Shown piece after piece: positions 51,807 to 63,063 of a DNA stretch of 64,000 nt; position 1 is the stretch's first letter, and each line of letters opens with the position of its first letter. The notes under the pieces were generated by a model that was not told the DNA's origin, searched no databases, and saw nothing but the letters and a program-made list of their open reading frames with translations. Position numbers and translations under genes: made by a program. Source of the stretch: Myxococcota bacterium (GTDB lineage: Bacteria; Myxococcota_A; UBA9160; UBA6930); contig OZ245015.1 of assembly GCA_965223705.1 (NCBI GenBank), forward strand, positions 2,592,001-2,656,000. The letters run 5' to 3'.

Positions 51807-52046
51807 ATGCCGGTGGCTTCCATCGAACGGCAGAAAAGAAAACTACCCGAGCGTCTCGCATTGGTTCGAGGCGAGCGATCCCAGCGTCAATTCGCCCGGG
51901 ACCTCGGCGTCTTTCAGCAAAACGTCAATCGCTACGAGAGCGGGACGACTCCGCACGCGGACTTCTTGATGCGTCTCGCCGTGAAAGAAGGCATCTCCCT
52001 CGACTGGCTGCTGCTCGGCAAGGGCCGGATGCGCCGAAGTCGCTGA
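51807..52046 (+). CDS. Small XRE/CI-like HTH protein
   Basis: RL..VRG..SQRQFARDLGV.QQNVNRYE.G..P...ISLDWLLLGKG; GGAG RBS; possible TTGCCG-N18-TACTAT promoter at 51685-51714. Confidence 0.8.
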   Translation: MPVASIERQKRKLPERLALVRGERSQRQFARDLGVFQQNVNRYESGTTPHADFLMRLAVKEGISLDWLLLGKGRMRRSR

Positions 52047-52214
52047 GCGGTTCCGCCCCGGGATAACGCCACCTTCCGTCAGGTGGTAACGCGTTACCCA
52101 TACTACCGGTCGCGGGCGTCCGCACCGAGTAGCAACTGTCGCAACAACCCGCCGTAACGCATGATGTCTGCACACCTCGGCGCCGAGGGCATCCTTCTTG
52201 CCCTTAGCGACGGC

Positions 52215-52550
52215 ATGGGTTGGTTGATCTCTCTGGTCGTCCTGGTATCGGCTGCCGATCATTGGACCACGTATCTGTGCCTGCGCGCTCCCGTCTCCGG
52301 ATGGATTGTCACCGAAGCAAACCCCGTTGCGGATTGGTTGTTCGGGCAGTTCGGTCTCGTTGAAGGGCTGTTGATCGACAGCCTGATCACGTTGGCGGCG
52401 CTCTTGGTCCTCTACCGTACGAATCGCGTTCCACACGCCGCGAAATGCGCGTTCCTCACCGCAGTTGCGATGGGCACGGGCTATGCGGTGCTCAACAATC
52501 TAGGCGCCATCCACCAGCTGGGACTCGGGACGCTCGTCGCGGGCGGCTAG
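52215..52550 (+). CDS. Small membrane protein (DUF5658-like)
   Basis: D..TT.L.L.....EANP...LF pattern with 3 TM; start uncertain (52161 or 52215). Confidence 0.65.
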   Translation: MGWLISLVVLVSAADHWTTYLCLRAPVSGWIVTEANPVADWLFGQFGLVEGLLIDSLITLAALLVLYRTNRVPHAAKCAFLTAVAMGTGYAVLNNLGAIHQLGLGTLVAGG

Positions 52551-52558
52551 CTTTCCCG

Positions 52559-54046
52559 CTACCCGCCGTGCTCGTGCAAGGCGAGCGCGAAACGATCGAG
52601 CGCGCGCATGACCGCCGTGGCGTCTGGGCCGGCCCGATTCACCATCGCCGAGAAGACCAACAGGTCGCCGTCGCGGGTCTCGACATAGCCGGACAGGCCC
52701 GAGACGCCGTTCAGAAGACCGGTCTTCGCCCGTAGCGCTTCGCCGACGGACTTCGCCCGATCTTTCAACGTTCCGTCGGAACCTCCGATCGGCAAACCGG
52801 AAATGAACTCCGAGCCCCATGTGAAAGAGGTCCGGGCGGCCCGCAGCGCGCCGACGAGAGTCCGCGGCGAAACGCGGTTCTCACGAGAAAGTCCCGAACC
52901 GTCGACCCAGACCGTTTTTCCGAGATCGATGCCGCGGCCGACGAGTTCTGCGCGCGCCGCGCGAACGCCTTTCTCCCACGTCCCGGGGACACCGTGTGCG
53001 TCGGCGCCCATGGCTTTGAGCAGCGTCTCGCCGATCGCGTTGTTGCTCCACTTGAGAAAGCGCCGCACCGCCGTCGCAACGGAGGGGCCCTCGAACTCGT
53101 AGAGGGGCGCCTCACAATCGGCCGCACCTTCGCGGGCCTGACCGTCGACGCGGATCCCGTGGCCGCGGAGCTGTTCGAGGAAAACGGCACCGGCGTAGCC
53201 GACCGGATCCGCGACGCTTCGCGCGAACCGCCTCGCCTGGGCCCTTCTCGACAACTGGCCGCTCACGGAAACGGTCTCGCCCGGTGCTGCGAGCGCGCGT
53301 TCGACGCGGAGTCGCGACGAGCCGGCGACGACCTGCGCGCGGTTCGCGACCCGGAAGTACGAGAGCGGCGGGTCGACGCGCACCGCAGGCGCCTCCCCCG
53401 TCCCAGACTCGGACGACACCCACACTTCGAAGGCGCCGTAGTTCGCTCCGAGCGCACTCACCGGCCCGAAGTATGCGCGGCTTGTGACGGCGCCCCAGGA
53501 GGGGTGATGCCGGACGCCGTCAAAGGCGCTGGCATCCAGGATGAGATCCCCGGTGACCCGCTTGAGCCCCCGGGCCCGCAGGTCCGCCGCGAGGCGCCAC
53601 CACTGCTCCGAAGTCAGCAGAGGATCGCCGCTCCCGATGACGCACAGGGCTGCGACGGCGCCACTCGCCGGAAGTGTTGGAGTCGTTTCCACCCGGGTCG
53701 CAAAGCGATGAGCCGGCCCGAAGTGCGAGAGGACCGCGACAGCGGTCAGAACCTTCTGATTCGAGGCGGGGATGAGCGCCCGATCGGGATAGTGCTCGAA
53801 GACCGTACTCCCGTCGCTTGCGCGGACGGCCAAGGCCCCGACGCGTGCGTTCTTGAGGGCGGGCGCCGCCAGGGCCTGTGTCAGAGCCTTCGACGCCGCC
53901 GGCTCAAGTTCCCCCCGTGCCTGGGTCGATGCCGCCTGACAGGCGGTGCCTCCCAGGCCGGCGAGCCCGAGAAGCGCCGCGTATCCACCGATCGCGGCGA
54001 GCCGGCCGATGCGCGCGGTCCGGCGGCTTGACGCTAGCGGGCTTAT
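52559..54046 (-). CDS. dacB: D-alanyl-D-alanine carboxypeptidase/endopeptidase (PBP4, peptidase S13)
   Basis: PASNQK (SxxK), GSGDP, WSNN (SxN), DGSGLSR, AKTG; start codon not resolved. Confidence 0.93.
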   Translation of the reverse strand: MSPLASSRRTARIGRLAAIGGYAALLGLAGLGGTACQAASTQARGELEPAASKALTQALAAPALKNARVGALAVRASDGSTVFEHYPDRALIPASNQKVLTAVAVLSHFGPAHRFATRVETTPTLPASGAVAALCVIGSGDPLLTSEQWWRLAADLRARGLKRVTGDLILDASAFDGVRHHPSWGAVTSRAYFGPVSALGANYGAFEVWVSSESGTGEAPAVRVDPPLSYFRVANRAQVVAGSSRLRVERALAAPGETVSVSGQLSRRAQARRFARSVADPVGYAGAVFLEQLRGHGIRVDGQAREGAADCEAPLYEFEGPSVATAVRRFLKWSNNAIGETLLKAMGADAHGVPGTWEKGVRAARAELVGRGIDLGKTVWVDGSGLSRENRVSPRTLVGALRAARTSFTWGSEFISGLPIGGSDGTLKDRAKSVGEALRAKTGLLNGVSGLSGYVETRDGDLLVFSAMVNRAGPDATAVMRALDRFALALHEHGG

Positions 54047-54122
54047 CCCCGAGCCTGCGCCGCAGCACAGAAGCCCTCGGACGGCGCGCCACCGTCGGCC
54101 CCTGCCCCCCGCAGGAGCATTC

Positions 54123-55430
54123 TTGGTTCTCAATTGGATCTGGCTGGGACTGGTCGTCATCTCCGTCCTTTTCGCCGCATGGACCGGTCGGATGGGGGAT
54201 GTTTCCACCGCATCCCTGCAGAGTGCGAAGGACGCGATCCACCTCGTTATCGGATTGACGGGCGGGATGATCTTTTTTCTCGGTCTCGTCAAGGTCGCGT
54301 CGGACGGCGGACTGCTGCGCGGCATTGTCCGCGCCCTCTCTCCGGTGCTGCGCCGCCTGTTCCCCGACCTACCGCAGGAGCATCCCGCCATGCGCGCGAT
54401 GCTGATGAATTTTGCCGCGAATGTCCTGGGCCTCGGGAACGCCGCTACGCCTTTTGGTCTCAAGGCCATGGTCGAACTGAACCGTGGCAATCCTCACCCG
54501 GGTTCGGCGACGAATGCGATGGCGCTGTTCCTCGCGATCAACACATCGTCGATCGTGCTCCTGCCGCCCACCGGAACCGTCATGGTGCGACTCGCGGCGG
54601 ATTCGGCGGCACCGTTCGCAATTTGGCTCCCCACCCTGTTCGCGACGTTGTGTTCCACGACCGCCGCGATCACAGGCTGCCTCCTCCTCCAGCGCATCCC
54701 CTTCTTTCGACCGCGGCCGCCCCAAGGCGGAGCGGGGGATGTTTCGGTTCCCGACGACCTTCCCGAGCCCGAAGCCCTCGACGCCGCTCCCAGCGAGTCG
54801 CCGGGTTGGCGCAAGCCCGTCGCCTGGCTGGTGATGGCGGCCGTCGTGGTCGGAATCGGCTTCGAGGCGCGCGAGCTCCTGGCGCGCGAAGGCGGAGATG
54901 CCGTCCTCAAGGCGCTCGCGCGCGACTGGGTCCTGCCCCTTCTGATCCTGACCTTCGTTCTCGTCGGGTTCGTGGGCCGTGTACGGGTTTATGAGGCTCT
55001 CGTCGAAGGGGGCAAGGACGGCCTGTCCGTGGCGGTGCGCATCGCCCCTTACCTCGTCGCGATCATGGTCGCGGTCGGAATGTTCCGCGCGTCCGGGGCC
55101 CTGGACTTGCTGGTCGGTGTGCTCGACCCCCTGACGCGACTGATCGGCGTTCCGGCGGAAGCCCTCCCGATGGCTCTCTTGCGACCCCTGTCCGGCTCCG
55201 GCGCCTTTGGCGTGATGGCGGAGATCGTCAACGAGCACGGCCCCGACACCTTCATCGGTTACTTGACGAGTACCCTGCAAGGATCCACAGAGACGACGTT
55301 TTACGTCTTGGCGGTCTACCTCGGAGCCGCGGGGATTCGCGATGCCCGCCATATCTTGCCCGCGTGCCTCATCGGGGATGCCGCCGGCTTCCTGGGCGCC
55401 GTCGCAGCTTGTCACGTGTTCTTCGGATGA
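54123..55430 (+). CDS. spmAB: Fused SpmA-SpmB nucleoside-recognition (Gate) domain membrane protein
   Basis: LNWIW, NVLGLGNAATPFGLKAM, INTSS (SpmA); RPLSGSG, GSTETTFYVLAVY (SpmB); TTG start after AGGAG. Confidence 0.92.
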   Translation: MVLNWIWLGLVVISVLFAAWTGRMGDVSTASLQSAKDAIHLVIGLTGGMIFFLGLVKVASDGGLLRGIVRALSPVLRRLFPDLPQEHPAMRAMLMNFAANVLGLGNAATPFGLKAMVELNRGNPHPGSATNAMALFLAINTSSIVLLPPTGTVMVRLAADSAAPFAIWLPTLFATLCSTTAAITGCLLLQRIPFFRPRPPQGGAGDVSVPDDLPEPEALDAAPSESPGWRKPVAWLVMAAVVVGIGFEARELLAREGGDAVLKALARDWVLPLLILTFVLVGFVGRVRVYEALVEGGKDGLSVAVRIAPYLVAIMVAVGMFRASGALDLLVGVLDPLTRLIGVPAEALPMALLRPLSGSGAFGVMAEIVNEHGPDTFIGYLTSTLQGSTETTFYVLAVYLGAAGIRDARHILPACLIGDAAGFLGAVAACHVFFG

Positions 55431-56431
55431 GCGAAGAAGCAGACGCCTTGCCCGCTGTGGTCCGTCGCGAATTGGGACGTGAGATCGTCGCACGTCGAGA
55501 GCTGGCTCCCGGCCTGGGCTCGCGACGCTTTATCCGGCTATCGCTCGACGCCGCGCCGACGCACGTGATCGCACGTCTCGAGACGCCCCGCGCTTCGACA
55601 GGCGGAGAACCGCCTCTCGAGCCACTTCGCACCATTCTCGAACAGGCCGATCTCCCGGTCCCGAAGCGCTTCGGCGGTGACCCGTCTCGCGGCATCGATC
55701 TCCTCGAGGACGTGGGGGACGAGAACTTGGAAATCCGGTCCGCCCGACTCGATCCCGACGCGTTCGAAGCGCTCATCGCGAGGATCCTCGCGGACCTCCC
55801 CCGGCTGCAGGCCATCACCGGGCCCGCCGATCTTCCCGCGCTGGGTCGGCGGCTCGACAGCGACCTCATCGCGCTGAAGGGCCGTGTGTTCGCGCGTTAC
55901 TCGTTGCGCGGGTCCGCTGATGCCGTCGTGGAAGAGGGCTTCCGGGCGATCGCAGAACGTCTCGCCGGTGCCCCGATGCGCCTGGCCCATCGGGACTTCC
56001 AAAGTCAGAACATTTTCATCCAGCAACGCGAGGGCAAGGCCATCCCGCGTTGGATCGACATTCAAGGCGCGTTTCTCGCACCGCCCGAGTACGACGCCGT
56101 CTGCCTGCTGCGAGACTCCTACCTCGAGTTTCCCGAAGGGTCGGTCTCCCGGCTCATCGCCGGCCTGCGGCCCTCCCTGCCCGATGCGCCGAGCCAGCGC
56201 GCCTTCGCCGAGCGGTTTTCGCTCCTCTCGCTCGCGCGCAAAGGCAAGGACCACGGGCGCTTTCTCGAGGCCGCCCGAAAAAGAGGCGACCGCCGCTACC
56301 TCCGCTACACGCGACGGACGTGGCAATTGGTGCGAGCCGCGGCGAGCGAATGCGCGGGGTTCGATCCACGCCTCGAAAGACTCAACGAGGTCGTTGCCGC
56401 GATGCCGCCCGAGCAGGCGTGCGAGGCCTAG
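55427..56431 (+). CDS. amgK: Anomeric MurNAc/GlcNAc kinase-like phosphotransferase
   Basis: SRRFIR, LLEDVGD, HRDFQSQNI, IDIQGA, YDAVCLLRD; directly upstream of murU-like gene. Confidence 0.75.
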   Translation: MSEEADALPAVVRRELGREIVARRELAPGLGSRRFIRLSLDAAPTHVIARLETPRASTGGEPPLEPLRTILEQADLPVPKRFGGDPSRGIDLLEDVGDENLEIRSARLDPDAFEALIARILADLPRLQAITGPADLPALGRRLDSDLIALKGRVFARYSLRGSADAVVEEGFRAIAERLAGAPMRLAHRDFQSQNIFIQQREGKAIPRWIDIQGAFLAPPEYDAVCLLRDSYLEFPEGSVSRLIAGLRPSLPDAPSQRAFAERFSLLSLARKGKDHGRFLEAARKRGDRRYLRYTRRTWQLVRAAASECAGFDPRLERLNEVVAAMPPEQACEA

Positions 56432-56450
56432 TGGCCGGCGTGGAGCACGC

Positions 56451-57392
56451 ATGCGCGGAATGATCGTCGCCGCGGGACTCGGGACGCGTCTCCGACCGCT
56501 GACCGAGCTGTGCCCCAAGCCAGCCCTCCCGGTCCGGGGCGTTCCCTTGATCGCCTACAACTTGCGGTTGCTCGCAGCGGCGGGCGTCGACGAAGTCGTG
56601 ATCAATACGCATCATCTCCCGGCCATCCTCGAGCGGGAAGCGCGAGCCTGGTGCCCGTCGGGCGTAACGCTGCGATTCTCCTACGAGCGGGAGCTCCTCG
56701 ACACCGGGGGCGGCATCCGTCGGGTCGTCGATTTTCTCCGCGAGAGCGACCCCGCGATCGTGATCGGCGGCGACATGCTCATCGACTTCGATCTCGAGGT
56801 GCTGCTGGCCGCCCATCGCCAGAGCGGCGCGGCGATCTCGACCCTGCTCCTCGACGACCCAAGGGCGTCCCGGTTCGGTACGATCGGAATCGATGATGAC
56901 GGGCGCGTGCGACGCATCGCGAATCGCTTTCGCGCCCGGGGCGCGCCGGAGACGAGGTGCGGCCTCTATACCTGGGTCAACGTGTTCCGCCCCGAGTCCT
57001 ACGACTACATGCCCGAGCGAGATCGATTCAGCCACTTCGACGCGTGGTGGATCCCGGTTATCGAAGCCGACCCGGACGCGGTCCGCGGCTCCCTCGTTTC
57101 GCGAGACACCTGCCGGTGGGAACCCGTGGGAACGCCCGAGGAGTACCTCCAGGTGAACTTCGACGTGCCGCCGCCCGCGTTTTTTGACGTTGCCGCAGAG
57201 GCGGCGCGCACGGGCGCGACACTCCGTCCCGGCCGCGTGGTGGGTCGCGACTGCACCGTCGCCGGCGAAGCCAACCTCGAGCGCGTCGTCGTCTGGGACG
57301 GTCAGCAGGTCCCCCCCGGTCGCTATCGCGACGGCGTCTTTGCCGACGGACGCTTCATCCCGCTCCTCGAGGCGCCGGGAGGGGCCGCGTGA
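56451..57392 (+). CDS. murU: Nucleotidyltransferase, MurU-like
   Basis: MIVAAGLGTRLRPLT..PKP, VINTHHL, LLDTGGGI; adjacency to amgK-like kinase and anmK. Confidence 0.75.
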   Translation: MRGMIVAAGLGTRLRPLTELCPKPALPVRGVPLIAYNLRLLAAAGVDEVVINTHHLPAILEREARAWCPSGVTLRFSYERELLDTGGGIRRVVDFLRESDPAIVIGGDMLIDFDLEVLLAAHRQSGAAISTLLLDDPRASRFGTIGIDDDGRVRRIANRFRARGAPETRCGLYTWVNVFRPESYDYMPERDRFSHFDAWWIPVIEADPDAVRGSLVSRDTCRWEPVGTPEEYLQVNFDVPPPAFFDVAAEAARTGATLRPGRVVGRDCTVAGEANLERVVVWDGQQVPPGRYRDGVFADGRFIPLLEAPGGAA

Positions 57393-58126
57393 GCGAGCTG
57401 GTACTCGTCGGCACTTCGGACGCCTTTGGTTCGGGCGGGCGGCGGCAGTCCGCCTATTTGATCCGCGGGGAGAACGGAGGCGCCCTTCTCGACTGCGGCG
57501 CGACGACACTGATGGGGCTCGCGGAGATGAGCATCGAGCGAGCCGAAATCGACACGATCGTCGTGTCCCACTTTCACGCCGACCACTTCGGTGGCATTCC
57601 CCTGTTTCTTCTGGCTTCGATGTACGAGGACCAGCGCACGGCGCCGCTTCAGATCGCCGGTCCTCCGGGCGTCGAGAGTCGCGTCCGCGGCGCAGCCCAA
57701 GCTCTCGGGCACCGAATCGAAAACCACCGGTGGAGCTTTCCGATCGAATTCGTCGAACTGCGCGCCGGCGTGCGCCGACCGACGGGGCCGATCGAAGTCG
57801 AGCCCTTCGAGACGCATCACACCCCCGATGCGAACCCTCACGGGTTCGTCGTCACGGTCGGCGCGCGCAAACTCGCCTACTCCGGCGACACCGGATGGTT
57901 TGACACGCTCCCGCGCCGCGTCGCGGGTAGCGAGCTCTTCCTGTGTGAGTGCACGCAGGTCACGCGAGATTACCCGTTCCACTTGAGCCTCGAAGAGCTC
58001 CGGGCGCGCCGCGACGAGTTCGACTGCGGCAGAATCCTGCTCACTCACTTGGGGTCGGCGATGCGCGCGCGAAAAGATTTCGACCGTTTCGAGGTGGCCG
58101 ACGACGGCATGCGGATCCGGTTCTAG
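57389..58126 (+). CDS. MBL-fold metallohydrolase (RNase Z-like)
   Basis: GTSDAFGSGGR, LDCG, SHFHADH, YSGDT, LTHL; GTGA overlap with murU stop. Confidence 0.9.
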   Translation: MSELVLVGTSDAFGSGGRRQSAYLIRGENGGALLDCGATTLMGLAEMSIERAEIDTIVVSHFHADHFGGIPLFLLASMYEDQRTAPLQIAGPPGVESRVRGAAQALGHRIENHRWSFPIEFVELRAGVRRPTGPIEVEPFETHHTPDANPHGFVVTVGARKLAYSGDTGWFDTLPRRVAGSELFLCECTQVTRDYPFHLSLEELRARRDEFDCGRILLTHLGSAMRARKDFDRFEVADDGMRIRF

Positions 58127-59262
58127 CGGGGCCTCGGAAGCCCCACGAATTCGCCCAACACGCGAGCGGAGGCGGCGCCCGTGCAGCGCGGCAGATGGTT
58201 GACCTGCCCGCACAACGCGTTGCGACCCATGAGCGAGAACGCGATGGCTTCCGCTGCATCCGGGGAAACACCGAGCGAACCCATATCGACGACCGGCGCC
58301 GGGGAGAGGCGCGATTCAATCGCCGAGACAAGAGCCGGGTTCTTGGCCCCGCCGCCGCCGACGACCACGCGATCGGGAGGCCCCTCCGGCAAGAACTCCC
58401 GACAAGCTCCGGCAAACGCTTCGGCCGAAAACGCCACGAGCGTGGCAACGAGCTCCGGGAGCCCGAGGTCGGCGCGCTTCACCAAAGCTTCCGCCTCGGC
58501 GAGACCATAGTGCTCCCGACCGGTGGATTTCGGCGGCGTGCGTCTGAGGAAGGGGTCCGCCAGGAGCTCCGCCAGCAAGTCCTCGTCGACGGTTCCGGAA
58601 GCTGCGAGGCTGCCATCCCGATCGAAGCGCTCGACGCCTTCCGTCGCCAGTGTGACGACGCCGTCGATGAGCGCGTTCGCAGGACCGCAGTCGAACGCCA
58701 TGACGTCGTCCTCGCCGCAGCCTCGCGGCAGCCACGTCAAGTTCGCGATACCGCCCAGATTGAGGACCACGCGAGACTCGTCTTCCGAACGAAAGGCGAC
58801 CCAATGAAAGAACGGTGCGAGAGGCGCGCCTTCTCCTCCCGCCGCGAGATCCCGCGCCCGGAAGTCGGCGATCACCGTCGAGCCCGTCCGCTCCGCGATG
58901 ACCGAAGGATCGCCGATTTGAAGGCTGGCCCGACGTTCCGGATGGTGCGCGACGGTTTGTCCGTGCGATGCGATCGCGACGTCGGATAGCGGAATCCCGG
59001 CGTCCGCGGCCACAGCCGCCGCTGCGGCTGCGAAATGCGCGCCGAGCAGAACGTCGAGGCCGGCGAGCTCGGCGAGGACCTCCTCGGAAGGCAGCCGCAA
59101 CGCGGCCAACCGGTGAATCCGCTGCTGAAGCTCTCGAGGTAGTGGATCTTCGCGATAGGCGACGAGTTCGAAGGGAACCGGGGGACCGGCGTCGGGCCAG
59201 CGCACAAGCGCGGCGTCGATCGCGTCGGCCGAGGTTCCGGACATCAATCCGATGACGTACAC
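58123..59262 (-). CDS. anmK: Anhydro-N-acetylmuramic acid kinase
   Basis: IGLMSGTSADAID, SHGQT..H, DFRARD..GGEGAPL, NLGGIAN, FDCGPAN, PPKSTGRE, EAIAF. Confidence 0.96.
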   Translation of the reverse strand: MYVIGLMSGTSADAIDAALVRWPDAGPPVPFELVAYREDPLPRELQQRIHRLAALRLPSEEVLAELAGLDVLLGAHFAAAAAAVAADAGIPLSDVAIASHGQTVAHHPERRASLQIGDPSVIAERTGSTVIADFRARDLAAGGEGAPLAPFFHWVAFRSEDESRVVLNLGGIANLTWLPRGCGEDDVMAFDCGPANALIDGVVTLATEGVERFDRDGSLAASGTVDEDLLAELLADPFLRRTPPKSTGREHYGLAEAEALVKRADLGLPELVATLVAFSAEAFAGACREFLPEGPPDRVVVGGGGAKNPALVSAIESRLSPAPVVDMGSLGVSPDAAEAIAFSLMGRNALCGQVNHLPRCTGAASARVLGEFVGLPRPR

Positions 59263-59438: not shown

Positions 59439-59681
59439 GTGACCGACTCATCGCGAAGTCAGGGCGGCCTGATCTGTGTCGCCGCCGTGCTCGTCGGACT
59501 CATCTTTCTGGCGGGCCTTCTCGCGCGGAGCTGGTGGGCTGTAGCGATCCCGGTCGCCATCGCGCTGCTCTTTGTCCTCGGCCTCGTCTTTTGGGTCGGA
59601 TGGACCATCATGACGGTGGACCTCGACCCCGAGCCGCCGCCGGCGGACCCAGCCCCCCCTGCGGAGCAAGACGCTGACTGA
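59439..59681 (+). CDS. Small 2-TM hypothetical protein
   Basis: Two hydrophobic helices, Pro/acidic tail, GC-rich codon pattern. Confidence 0.65.
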   Translation: MTDSSRSQGGLICVAAVLVGLIFLAGLLARSWWAVAIPVAIALLFVLGLVFWVGWTIMTVDLDPEPPPADPAPPAEQDAD

Positions 59682-59775
59682 CGCGCGCCTCCTCTCGCTC
59701 CGGAGTCAGCGTTGCGCGTCGCTTTCTTGATTCGGAACGACCCGTGCGAACCGCACTCCTGATTCGGAATTGCCT

Positions 59776-61023
59776 GTGCGAATCGCGCTCCTGACGTACC
59801 GCGGCAACATGTTTTGCGGCGGTCAGGGCATCTACGCGTCCCACATCGCCGAAGAACTCCGAGCGCTGGGTTGCGATGTCCACGTCATTGCGGGCCCGCC
59901 GCTTCCCGAGCTCCCTTCGGGCATTCCGCTGCACGAAATCCCGAACGAGAATGTGTTCGGCGTGCCCCTCGCAGAGTGGGCCGAGACGCACGACCCGCGG
60001 CGACTCCTGGCACCGCTGTCTGCGTGGGAAGCGCTGGTTTCTCGGGTCGGTGTCTTTCCCGAAATGCAAACTTTCGGAGCGCGTCTTTTTCTCCGCTGGC
60101 CCACCTTGATGAAACAACATCGATTCGATGTGGTCCTCGACAATCAGAGCTTGACCTGGGGCCTCCTCGGACTGCGCGCGTTGGGCACGCCCGTGGTGGG
60201 TGTCATCCATCACCCCTTACACATCGACCGGGAAGCCGATTTCGCGATCGACCGGACGCTCAAACAGCGGGTCCGCCGCACGCTCTACTTTCCGATGTGG
60301 ATGCAGCAACGCGTCGCACCGAGACTCGATCGCATCGTGACGGTCAGCGAGGCTTCGCGTCGCGAGATCGCGTTGCGCTTCGGGATCCCCGAAAAGCGAA
60401 TCGACGTGGTGTGGAACGGAACCGACGCGGAGCTCTTCCGGCCCCACCCCGAGGTACCGAAAGAAACCGATCTGGTCTTCGTCGGCCGCACGGAGGATCG
60501 CAAGAAAGGGATCGGCACGCTGATCGAGGCTCTCGGGGCGTTGCCGGGGGTCACGCTCAAAATCGTCGATGGGCGCATCCCGGATCATGGCCTCGTTCCC
60601 CGCCTGCTTCGGAAGCACGGTGTCGAGGACCGCGTCGTGCTCGACCGCCGACTTCTCGAACGCGACGAGCTCGCAGCGACCTATACGACTGCCCGCATCG
60701 CCGTCGTCCCTTCTTTCTTCGAGGGCTTCGGTTTCCCCGCGACCGAAGCGATGGCGTGCGGCCTCCCGGTCGTCGCTCACGCGGTCGGCGCTCTACCGGA
60801 GCTACTCGGAAGCGACGATCGCTGCGGGCGACTCGTTCCGCCCCACAACCCGCCCGCCCTGGCGGCCGCCATCCGCTCGCTCCTCGATGAGCCGGGCGCG
60901 TGCGAAGCGGCCGGGGCCCGAGCGAGGGAGCGCGTCGTTCGCACGTTTCCCTGGCGCCAGGCGGGCGCGTCCCTGCTTCGGTGTCTGGAAGCCGTCGTGC
61001 GCGAGCGGCGCGGAGCCCGCTGA
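59776..61023 (+). CDS. Glycosyltransferase family 4 (paralog 1)
   Basis: RIALLTYRGNMFCGGQG, IHHP, WNGTD, KKG, EGFGFPATEAMACG. Confidence 0.92.
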   Translation: MRIALLTYRGNMFCGGQGIYASHIAEELRALGCDVHVIAGPPLPELPSGIPLHEIPNENVFGVPLAEWAETHDPRRLLAPLSAWEALVSRVGVFPEMQTFGARLFLRWPTLMKQHRFDVVLDNQSLTWGLLGLRALGTPVVGVIHHPLHIDREADFAIDRTLKQRVRRTLYFPMWMQQRVAPRLDRIVTVSEASRREIALRFGIPEKRIDVVWNGTDAELFRPHPEVPKETDLVFVGRTEDRKKGIGTLIEALGALPGVTLKIVDGRIPDHGLVPRLLRKHGVEDRVVLDRRLLERDELAATYTTARIAVVPSFFEGFGFPATEAMACGLPVVAHAVGALPELLGSDDRCGRLVPPHNPPALAAAIRSLLDEPGACEAAGARARERVVRTFPWRQAGASLLRCLEAVVRERRGAR

Positions 61024-61715
61024 TGCTGCTCACCGTCGATCTGGACGAGCTCGACGTGCGTCCCGGTGACCTCCTCCTCGACGCAGGGTGCGGAGAAGGT
61101 CGACATTGTGCGGGGGCACTCGATCGCGGCGCCCGCGTCATCGGCCTCGACATCGATCGCGCCGCTCTCGCCGCCGCACAGGCGACGTTGCGCGAGAGGC
61201 CCGGGCGCTCCGACCTGTTGCGAGGCGACGCGCTCGCACTCCCATTTCCCGATGCCCGCTTTGACCGCGTGATCTGCTCGGAAGTGATGGAACATGTCGA
61301 CGACTACAACGGGGCGCTCCGGGAGCTCGCGCGAATCACCCGTCCCGCGGGCCGGCTCGCCGTCACCGTGCCGACGGAGCTGAGCGAGAAACTCTACCTA
61401 CACCTTTCGGACGAATACTTCGAAAGTCCCGGCGGACACATCCGCATCTTCTCCCCGAAAAAACTCGCGCGCGCGATGCGTCGCGCGGGCTTCGAAGAGA
61501 TCCGAGCGGGCTTCGCCCACGCACTGCACACGCCCTACTGGGCGCTCCGAAATTTCGTCGGGCTCTCGGGTGCCGACGCGCGGCCGGTCGTCCGCGCATA
61601 CCGGATCGGTCTGCTGCGCGCGACGCAATCGCCGTTGGCCCACCGCCTGGAACGTATGCTGAATCGCGTATTCCCCAAGAGCCTGATCCTGTATGCCCGT
61701 CGCAGCGCACCCTGA
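61023..61715 (+). CDS. Class I SAM-dependent methyltransferase
   Basis: LTVD, LDAGCGEGRH, GDALALPF, SEVMEH, GGHIRIF, HALHTPYW. Confidence 0.92.
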   Translation: MLLTVDLDELDVRPGDLLLDAGCGEGRHCAGALDRGARVIGLDIDRAALAAAQATLRERPGRSDLLRGDALALPFPDARFDRVICSEVMEHVDDYNGALRELARITRPAGRLAVTVPTELSEKLYLHLSDEYFESPGGHIRIFSPKKLARAMRRAGFEEIRAGFAHALHTPYWALRNFVGLSGADARPVVRAYRIGLLRATQSPLAHRLERMLNRVFPKSLILYARRSAP

Positions 61716-63063
61716 ACACCTCCGCGTCGCACTGCTCTCTTACCGGGGCAACATGCGGTGCGGTGGTCAAGGGGTCTATCTCTGGCACCTCGCGAGAGGT
61801 CTCGCCCGCCTGGGACACCGCGTCGAAGTCTGGTGCGGGCCTCCGTACCCGGACCCGATGCCTTTCGTCGAAGCCGTCCACAGACTTCCCGGAAACGAGT
61901 TCTTTGGGAAGTGGTTCAATCCAGATCGGCGGGGCTTCCTGCCCGAACCGCGACCGCTGTCCGTGCTCAAACCCCTGCCGTTTTACGAGCTGGGCGCGAG
62001 CTGGCTCGGGTTTCTCGTCGAGCCCGCGCTGTTCTCGCTGCGGGCCTTCGCGGCGGTAACTGCGCGCGCGCAGCGGACCGGCGCGTTCGACGTGGTTCAC
62101 GACGTGCAGTCGCTGGGCTATGGGCTCCTCGGATTGCGTGCTCGCGGGACTCCCGTCGTCTCCACCGTCCACCACCCCCTGACCGTCGATCGCGCCGCGT
62201 CTTTTCGCGCCGACCGAACGTTCCGTGACGCCGTCGGCACGGCGAAATTCTTCCCGATCGGGATGCAAGCTTTCGTGGCCCGTCGCATCGACGGGATCCT
62301 GACATCTTCGCGCTCGAGTGCCGCGCGGATTCACCGCGATTTTCGGGTACCGCGCGAACGCATCACGGATGTCGCGAACGGAGTCGATACCGACTGCTTC
62401 CGACCCCGCCCGCTGGCGCGCGAGCCGTCGACCGTGTTGTGTGTCGCCCGGGCGGCCGACCCCAACAAGGGTGTTCGAGACTTGGTGCGCGCACTCCGTC
62501 ACCTTCCAGACGACATCGCGCTCGAACTGGTCGACGATGCCGGTCCGAGCAACCCGGCGCGCGTCTGGGCGAAACGAGCCGGGGTGGCGCACCGCCTGAC
62601 GATCACCGGCGCGCTCCCGATCGACGTCTTGGCCGAACGCTACGCGCGGGCGACGCTCGTCGCCGTTCCTTCTCACCACGAAGGCTTCGGCCTGCCGGCC
62701 GTTGAAGCCATGGCGAGCGAGACTCCGGTTGTCGCCGCCGCCGGCGGCGCTTTGGCAGAAGTTCTCGCGGACGGAGGCGGAACCCTCGTCCCCGTCGGCC
62801 AAACCGAAGCGATGGCCGGCGCGATCCGCGAGCTCATCGCCCGACCGTCGCTGCGCGCGACCTTGGGGCAAAAAGGTCGCGAGATTGCCGTTCGCCGCTA
62901 CAGCTGGGCGTCGATCACAGACGCCACCTGCGATGTCTACCGAGCGGTACGTGGTGCGGGAGTCGCCGGTGATTTCGGCCTCCCGACGAGGATCAGTACG
63001 TCCGCGGCCCCCGGGAAAACGCCCGCCAATCGATCCGCGACTTCGAGCCACGCCCGCGCGTAG
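61693..63063 (+). CDS. Glycosyltransferase family 4 (paralog 2)
   Basis: RVALLSYRGNMRCGGQG, VHHP, NGVD, NKG, EGFGLPAVEAMAS. Confidence 0.92.
   Translation: MPVAAHPEHLRVALLSYRGNMRCGGQGVYLWHLARGLARLGHRVEVWCGPPYPDPMPFVEAVHRLPGNEFFGKWFNPDRRGFLPEPRPLSVLKPLPFYELGASWLGFLVEPALFSLRAFAAVTARAQRTGAFDVVHDVQSLGYGLLGLRARGTPVVSTVHHPLTVDRAASFRADRTFRDAVGTAKFFPIGMQAFVARRIDGILTSSRSSAARIHRDFRVPRERITDVANGVDTDCFRPRPLAREPSTVLCVARAADPNKGVRDLVRALRHLPDDIALELVDDAGPSNPARVWAKRAGVAHRLTITGALPIDVLAERYARATLVAVPSHHEGFGLPAVEAMASETPVVAAAGGALAEVLADGGGTLVPVGQTEAMAGAIRELIARPSLRATLGQKGREIAVRRYSWASITDATCDVYRAVRGAGVAGDFGLPTRISTSAAPGKTPANRSATSSHARA

Follow-up and report, generated by a model that had tools for sequence, protein, structure and literature searches.

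What does a fused SpmA-SpmB membrane protein do at the head of a cluster of peptidoglycan-recycling genes? The question is raised by the spmAB locus of a Myxococcota bacterium (assembly GCA_965223705.1, contig OZ245015.1; 4.56 Mb in 2 contigs, 95% complete), which lies in a stretch of 64,000 nucleotides that we call the window (G000:C1:2592001-2656000; features are numbered from its first letter). In Bacillus subtilis, dacB-spmA-spmB form an operon whose loss raises core water, according to passages of PMC8745062 and PMC13188902 that cite Popham 1995, and a passage of a preprint (bioRxiv 10.1101/2022.02.25.481979) describes SpmA and SpmB as conserved across almost all spore-forming bacteria and required for dehydration of the core, by a mechanism stated to be unknown. 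The original prediction held that SpmAB imports (anhydro-)N-acetylmuramic acid (MurNAc) or small wall fragments, and so defines an AmpG-independent recycling system. Our analysis covers gene content, gene order, distribution and predicted fold; transport, its substrate and its direction remain proposals. On these grounds we favor, tentatively and at somewhat less than even confidence, a reading in which SpmAB imports small wall-derived peptides (stem peptides and their dipeptides) or D-alanine, alongside rather than instead of AmpG-type import.

The gene spmAB (54123..55430, forward strand) starts at a TTG codon with AGGAG upstream and encodes 435 aa with two Gate (PF07670) stretches, SpmA-like then SpmB-like (70.5 bits vs 29.6). 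Its homologs carry the names SpmA and SpmB, the close ones with a name being from Myxococcota MAGs, and the SpmAB profile A1 matches both the spmA and the spmB halves in 42/51 Bacillota genomes, mostly at E values of 1e-60 to 1e-93 per half. The two halves form a weak internal repeat (hhalign probability 84%). These genes are common beyond spore formers, occurring in 52/201, 53/101, 25/101, 47/71 and 14/81 genomes of five other phylum samples. Two distant homologs (P0139, P0145) carry a Kelch beta-propeller fused in front of SpmAB; the propeller resembles the sialic acid mutarotase NanM weakly, below cut-off.

Searching PDB sequences with SpmAB returned no meaningful match. We therefore turn to its AlphaFold2 model, built from 79 sequences (mean pLDDT 93.7) and compared with 48,161 solved chains. 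All of the top 13 structural matches are elevator-type transporters of the CNT family or the IT superfamily, and unrelated rows begin at Z 7.1. The closest fold is the CNT 5L24 (Z 14.7, root-mean-square deviation [rmsd] 4.8, 284 aligned residues), with further matches to CNT3 8TZ1 (Z 13.6), VcINDY (12.4), ArsB (12.1), TRAP (11.6) and YdaH (10.7), to be read with the caution that a Z near 13 can be unspecific for helical bundles. Foldseek returned the same transporter families, weakly. The model favors a secondary transporter for small solutes, by prediction an ion-coupled elevator-type importer, and does not point to a particular cargo; the solutes of its closest folds are nucleosides, dicarboxylates, arsenite and sulfate. 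SpmAB thus resembles the CNT and IT-superfamily elevators (VcINDY, AbgT/YdaH, TRAP, ArsB) in predicted fold and shares Gate with CNT, but differs from them in its low identity (9-18%), in an rmsd of 4.5-7 and in lacking the CNT N- and C-terminal Pfam domains. Membership in the CNT family was rejected on the same grounds: Gate alone was matched, without Nucleos_tra2_N or _C, while the genome's own CNT matches all three domains. No convincing profile alignment of SpmAB with that CNT appeared among the matches listed, so the CNT binding residues could not be mapped onto it.

All six open reading frames (ORFs) of the locus lie within 52559-59262, and the claimed four-base stop/start overlap (ATGA, 55427..55430, forward strand) joins spmAB to the next gene, which encodes an AmgK-like sugar kinase of the APH fold (55427..56431, forward strand; 334 aa; PF01636). 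A 19-bp gap separates it from a MurU-like nucleotidyltransferase (56451..57392, forward strand; 313 aa; PF00483), which in turn overlaps, through GTGA, a short RNase Z-like hydrolase of the metallo-beta-lactamase (MBL) fold (57389..58126, forward strand; 245 aa; PF00753/PF12706). The anhydro-MurNAc kinase gene anmK (58123..59262, reverse strand; PF03702, 303.5 bits) converges on this operon, with a 4-bp stop overlap with the MBL gene, and dacB, encoding the PBP4-type S13 DD-carboxypeptidase/endopeptidase (52559..54160, reverse strand; PF02113, 322 bits; TIGR00666, 262.8 vs a cut-off of 107.8), lies on the other side of spmAB. Each of the six genes is single copy in the genome. The locus is likely a divergent anabolic cluster for MurNAc recycling (AnmK, with probable AmgK and MurU), next to a PBP4 peptidase gene.

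The arrangement is conserved. Among 30 relatives, 28 hold spmAB; amgK follows it in 25 of these, and the other 3 loci end at contig ends. In 5 more relatives beyond those 25, spmAB heads an amgK-murU run, and dacB is divergent from spmAB in 26/28. This conserved place before amgK and the fold matches belong to the supported part of the original prediction. Across 16 wider loci from the order, anmK occupies the same place in 15 and the MBL gene follows murU in 14. The operon is real and conserved, and represents a new form of anabolic MurNAc recycling, headed by a predicted elevator transporter. In these 16 loci the unrelated genes on either side are just as syntenic, and the region is therefore one inherited block. 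The flanks kept across the class are, on one side, a small helix-turn-helix-like ORF and a DUF5658 gene (51813-52550) and, on the other, genes for a methyltransferase and two GT4 glycosyltransferases (59439-63063). Three records titled Spirochaetaceae or Spirochaetales (L062, L063, L066) carry the same block and nest in the order's SpmAB clade; their titles are probably wrong.

This block has a history that can be followed in the sister order. There, dacB, amgK, murU, the MBL gene and anmK stand in the same order without spmAB in both loci examined. The gene is still held by 22/23 sister-order genomes, elsewhere: in 6/6 loci (L571-L576) it sits tightly between an aldolase/short-chain dehydrogenase gene and one for a TIGR04211 SH3 protein. 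The run continues from the SH3 protein to a 290-aa protein without assigned function and, in 4/6, to purU. The evidence is thus 6 loci for the sister-order operon and 2 for the recycling block without spmAB. In phylum members outside the class, amgK was never preceded by spmAB (23/23). Translational coupling, considered as proof of shared function, is weakened by these comparisons: an ATGA-type overlap of -4 between spmAB and amgK occurs in only 3/22 relatives' loci, the others having gaps of 7-389 bp by rough start calls, and spmAB is equally tight in the unrelated sister-order operon.

Within the order, the slot between dacB and amgK has not always held the same protein. On the SpmAB tree, 25/27 slot-filling proteins form one clade and two group with the sister-order type; loci L057 (genome G026) and L445 carry a sister-order-type SpmAB in the same slot. 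A single clade for all slot-filling SpmABs is rejected by the approximately unbiased test (p-AU 0.004; 49 rows on a quick tree, tested after the outlier had been noticed, and leaving out 9 own-clade rows with one long branch and 18 outgroup rows). That two SpmAB subtypes occupy the slot and one clade is rejected indicates at least one in-place replacement there, which speaks modestly for retention of position. In one relative (G011, 75% complete), spmAB is cleanly missing, with ~190 bp between dacB and amgK, and dacB, amgK and murU are kept; in another (G019), spmAB lies in two pieces 80 kb apart. Both genomes hold AmpG at cut-off level.

We then asked what accompanies spmAB elsewhere, using 340 loci that do not belong to this block (a GTDB scan gave 70, and six phylum samples together with a scan of metagenomes gave the other 270; 152 have 3 kb on both sides, 307 have 900 bp downstream). 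A six-frame search of these loci found amgK, anmK, nagZ, murQ, mpl and ampG in none; ~0.8 chance matches of a single-copy gene are expected in the 3.05 Mb searched, the murQ and mpl profiles are single sequences, and the AmgK profile has a working positive control. Three weak nucleotidyltransferase matches lie near spmAB elsewhere, none beside a kinase. The expected enrichment of spmAB near recycling genes therefore fails for the sugar genes amgK, anmK, nagZ and murQ (0/340), and holds, weakly, for peptide-trimming genes. Wall-related genes make up 38/610 direct neighbors and fall in 20/378 homology clusters, of which ~358 were scanned; the scan left out 20 singleton representatives and 113 second- or third-place neighbors of GTDB loci, and one locus (L108) is without a called spmAB. 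Outside the order, most of these neighbors encode enzymes of the peptide side, with S11 DD-carboxypeptidases (7 among the 610), Amidase_3 (8), LdcA (6) and M14 (2), together with single cases of NlpC/P60, a DUF1460 amidase, an Ala-Glu epimerase-like protein, alanine racemase, alanine dehydrogenase and an S13 peptidase. The recurring ones act on stem peptides or alanine. Compared with 2/150 for distant control genes, 20 of ~358 clusters gives p 0.03. A firmer sign than such statistics is recurrence: a tree of 356 SpmAB sequences has LdcA next to spmAB at four separate points, spread over at least three phyla, vs ~0.16 expected for a single-copy gene, and a DD-carboxypeptidase is adjacent at three, this order included.

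Two neighborhoods illustrate the range of partners. In Tissierella (L122), ABC genes, an SH3-NlpC/P60 dipeptidyl-peptidase-like gene, spmA, spmB and ldcA run in one direction, an arrangement that we take to resemble the Bacillus dpp/ykf peptide-recycling run. In loci of the Ignavibacteria type (L082, L107, L110, L221, L336 and others), an Amidase_3 gene, a long spmAB, a 2-hydroxyacid dehydrogenase gene and an alanine dehydrogenase gene occur together.

A cargo of peptides or D-alanine would fit the enzymes encoded in this genome. PBP4 and periplasmic amidase families release D-alanine and stem peptides, and here PBP4 and a periplasmic amidase would supply them; SpmAB would carry them inward, and the LdcA- and Mpl-like enzymes, judged by their families, would trim and re-ligate the imported peptides. 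The sugar arm would have its own supply, here probably through a sodium symporter whose gene is coupled to nagZ. Genes for LdcA, Mpl and an Amidase_3 enzyme are present in the genome, and an Amidase_2/AmpD search of it gave no match, so free peptides would need a way in. The genes ldcA and mpl flank one for a beta-lactamase-fold serine hydrolase in a run directly after dnaB (G000:C1:752759-756332, L042); by analogy, this hydrolase could presumably be an AmiE-like amidase that replaces the missing AmpD.

Several observations weigh against a peptide cargo. The co-oriented partners of spmAB in this order are sugar enzymes, the PBP4 gene being divergent, and in the sister order the gene is packed equally tightly among unrelated genes. 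Only 51/340 loci have a wall-related neighbor within two genes, and the fused forms, the type found here, have one less often than the two-gene forms (27/230 vs 24/110); all LdcA cases are two-gene forms, and the nearest fused relatives of the clade are without wall neighbors. The enrichment weakens to p 0.10-0.18 once one or both of two borderline control genes, for a decarboxylase and for a BON protein, are counted as well, and to p 0.12 for peptide enzymes alone; the wall-family list was drawn up after the data had been seen, and kin are not independent. Recurrence alone is no proof, as a non-wall pseudouridine synthase also recurs beside spmAB in two phyla.

The claim that SpmAB defines an AmpG-independent system was not supported. 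This genome does lack AmpG as far as profile and tblastn searches reach (best score 27.5 bits vs 350; no tblastn match with three relatives' AmpG-like proteins). The AmpG-like genes of relatives sit at one ancestral place from which the gene is missing here, and AmpG is missing from the genus. Of the 30 relatives, 20 have an AmpG-like match, above cut-off in 3, and the matches below cut-off fit the AmpG model best. Of 96 genomes sampled from the class, 93 have spmAB and 58 an AmpG-like gene, which passes the cut-off in 23. The distribution of spmAB is that of a near-core gene kept regardless of AmpG: it occurs in 23/23 class genomes with above-cut-off AmpG and in 37/38 without an AmpG-like match. 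Its retention with or without AmpG fits a transporter of different cargo. Replacement of AmpG was thus rejected by co-occurrence, and the signal from G011 and G019, in which AmpG is present and spmAB lost or split, vanished in the larger sample. A different gene lies closer to the missing function. A sodium:solute symporter (SSS) gene (G000:C1:2429590-2431062) overlaps, at its stop, the NagZ-like gene, the two together spanning G000:C1:2428685-2431062 (L187, L044), and the same pair occurs in G027 (L142), the two symporters being 48% identical. Both genomes are AmpG-less, and the pair is absent within 1.5 kb in five NagZ loci from holders of AmpG-like genes. We regard this symporter, a candidate importer of the GlcNAc-anhydroMurNAc disaccharide, as a better candidate AmpG substitute than SpmAB.

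These data bear on three other accounts of SpmAB. It may carry a solute unrelated to wall recycling, such as an ion or small organic acid, its place here reflecting one inherited rearrangement; we consider this a real possibility, though a doubtful one. Such a solute would also fit the spore-dehydration phenotype and the substrates of the closest folds, and would account for the 289/340 other loci without a wall-related neighbor within two genes, the synteny of the whole region including its unrelated flanks, the clean loss of spmAB in G011, and a sister order in which the recycling block does without spmAB and spmAB keeps, at short gaps, other company. What it leaves unaccounted for is the repeated, independent adjacency to LdcA and DD-carboxypeptidases; the two SpmAB subtypes in the dacB-amgK slot also fit retention, though recombination in place needs no positional selection. 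Alternatively, SpmAB would import free MurNAc or anhydroMurNAc and feed AmgK/MurU and AnmK directly, a version of the original idea freed of its AmpG-replacement claim. Its place at the head of amgK-murU runs in the 25 and 5 further relatives speaks for this, and the closest fold binds a sugar-containing solute; the two Kelch fusions with weak NanM similarity point the same way. There is also a need to be met. In five high-quality relatives (G014, G025, G012, G017, G005; two of them closed chromosomes), no NagZ-type gene was found (best 72 bits vs 207, in long BglX-type frames), in a search that did not extend to hexosaminidases other than NagZ, and the NagZ-type motif occurs in only 7/30 best GH3 loci from relatives. 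Four of the five hold anmK-amgK-murU at the locus and the fifth, G005, amgK-murU; G025 also lacks AmpG, so that free sugar needs a source. With NagZ missing in relatives and MupP doubtful here, the AnmK and AmgK of this order may rely on import of free sugar, and AmgK in this genome may depend on imported MurNAc.

Nonetheless, we think free-sugar import unlikely. The adjacency to sugar genes rests on a single inherited arrangement: none of the 340 other loci has amgK, anmK, nagZ or murQ, with the reservation that only 152 of them extend 3 kb on both sides, amgK stands without spmAB in phylum members outside the class and in the sister order, and in many holders of spmAB, Bacillota among them, the partner gene encodes a peptidase. 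The original prediction is thus supported in part: its transporter-like fold and its AnmK/AmgK/MurU cluster stand, and its sugar substrate now looks unlikely. Very improbable, in our judgment, is that SpmAB substitutes for AmpG by importing whole anhydro-muropeptides. The absence of AmpG from this genome and genus and the two relatives with AmpG and a lost or split spmAB would suit it; against it stand the coexistence with AmpG throughout the class, the 3 class genomes without spmAB, of which 2 have only a sub-cut-off AmpG-like gene and 1 has none, and the AmpG-like matches in 7/10 spmAB genomes of other lineages (3 above cut-off). Moreover, elevator transporters of CNT/IT-type folds carry small solutes, and the symporter-nagZ pair is the closer candidate in this genome. 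Peptide or D-alanine import by SpmAB remains the reading we prefer. A broader formulation, which we would call possible but doubtful, is that SpmA and SpmB are unrecognized, widespread elevator-type importers in wall turnover, carrying free MurNAc/anhydroMurNAc or stem peptides here, in a route often without NagZ, AmpD or MupP and with the MBL hydrolase replacing MupP.

Were SpmAB a wall-turnover importer, a 30-year-old spore-dehydration factor would gain a biochemical function. The value of the present evidence is modest, as it comes from gene neighborhood and the AmpG-replacement claim fails; a confident transporter fold and a short substrate list nevertheless make the SpmA/SpmB question directly testable in E. 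coli K-12. Our literature searches found no work linking spmA and spmB with peptidoglycan recycling, no mention of 'spore maturation protein' among the amgK/murU/anmK papers listed, and, among the matches listed, no substrate for the SpmA/SpmB family, in a body of text that mostly excluded subscription papers; supplements may hold fitness data on spmAB homologs. Further related literature includes passages of PMC3533761 and, for Caulobacter, PMC13046382.

We also examined how secure the recycling enzymes themselves are. AnmK passes its NCBIfam equivalog cut-off (NF007148, 397 vs 387). The kinase falls below both NCBIfam models for AmgK (39.1 of a cut-off of 550, 33.6 of 500), and its sole PDB sequence match is 3CSV. 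It nevertheless has the APH fold, is single copy, lies directly before a MurU-type gene and is orthologous to proteobacterial AmgK. A clade profile from 19 clade kinases gives one match per genome in 58/91 genomes of the phylum, and its single match in a gammaproteobacterial genome is a gene that scores 320 on the AmgK model (cut-off 550) directly before an above-cut-off MurU. The nucleotidyltransferase, directly following amgK, reaches 119 of 250 on the MurU model and 134 on the mannose-1-phosphate guanylyltransferase model, which is further below its cut-off of 440; it is longer than the 226-position MurU model, and its PDB matches, among several nucleotidyltransferases, include 4Y7T (E 9.5e-31) and 8HHD, named MurU (E 2.3e-26). 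We take the two proteins as likely divergent AmgK and MurU.

The remaining steps are less clear. The statement that ampG, nagZ and mupP are absent from the window is correct. The NagZ-like gene lies ~162 kb before it (NF003740, 198 vs 207; 302 aa; variant active-site loop). Five HAD phosphatase candidates for MupP, all outside the window and drawn from two queries and a motif that may miss others, reach at best 84.5 vs 359 on the MupP model, and phosphoglycolate phosphatase fits better. In both orders of the class the MBL gene is coupled to murU, and its product may stand in for MupP as the MurNAc-6-phosphate phosphatase. This hydrolase scores below cut-off on all RNase Z models, and among solved structures it comes closest to RNase Z and Apyc1-like phosphodiesterases; atlas searches with the MBL and SpmA sequences returned only clusters without names. 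A MurQ-like gene (G000:C1:656180-657016, L043; 291.7 vs 302) coexists with the AmgK/MurU-like genes in this genome; in beta- and gammaproteobacteria, a passage of PMC5371407 describes either MurQ or AmgK-MurU. The locus points to an unusual recycling arrangement in the class, with AnmK beside AmgK/MurU, MurQ here, and NagZ often missing.

Comparison with described systems places the locus between several of them. Like B. subtilis dacB-spmA-spmB, it combines the same Gate family with a DD-carboxypeptidase; unlike it, the two halves are fused, the peptidase is of the S13 type and divergent (S11 and co-transcribed in Bacillus), sugar-recycling genes follow, and the lineage is Gram-negative. The Pseudomonas route (AmpG-NagZ-AnmK-MupP-AmgK-MurU, as given in PMC5371407) shares an above-cut-off AnmK and an adjacent AmgK-like and MurU-like pair; here, however, there is no AmpG and no clear MupP, the MurQ-like gene is also present, AmgK and MurU are far below their cut-offs, and anmK is clustered with them. 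Agrobacterium YejBEF-YepA, described in PMC9790009 as an AmpG-independent ABC importer of muropeptides in orders lacking AmpG, is likewise an alternative importer proposed for an AmpG-lacking lineage, but SpmAB has a predicted secondary-transporter fold and co-occurs freely with AmpG. A distant relation is E. coli YjiG/YjiH: SpmAB matches PRK10519 weakly (E 2.3e-7, below cut-off), and a passage of PMC13311989 describes YjiG as a Gate-domain inner-membrane protein of elusive function.

PRK10519 presumably corresponds to YjiG, and yjiHG presumably lie before iadA, the gene for isoaspartyl dipeptidase. In a promoter and terminator scan of the Myxococcota locus, the number of sites was no higher than in shuffled sequence. 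The start of dacB is uncertain: its sole in-frame upstream ATG (54160) overlaps the spmAB start head to head by 38 bp, and the frame has no ATG, GTG or TTG between 54133 and 53833. The true start of dacB may be non-standard, or there may be a sequence error at 53833-54160.

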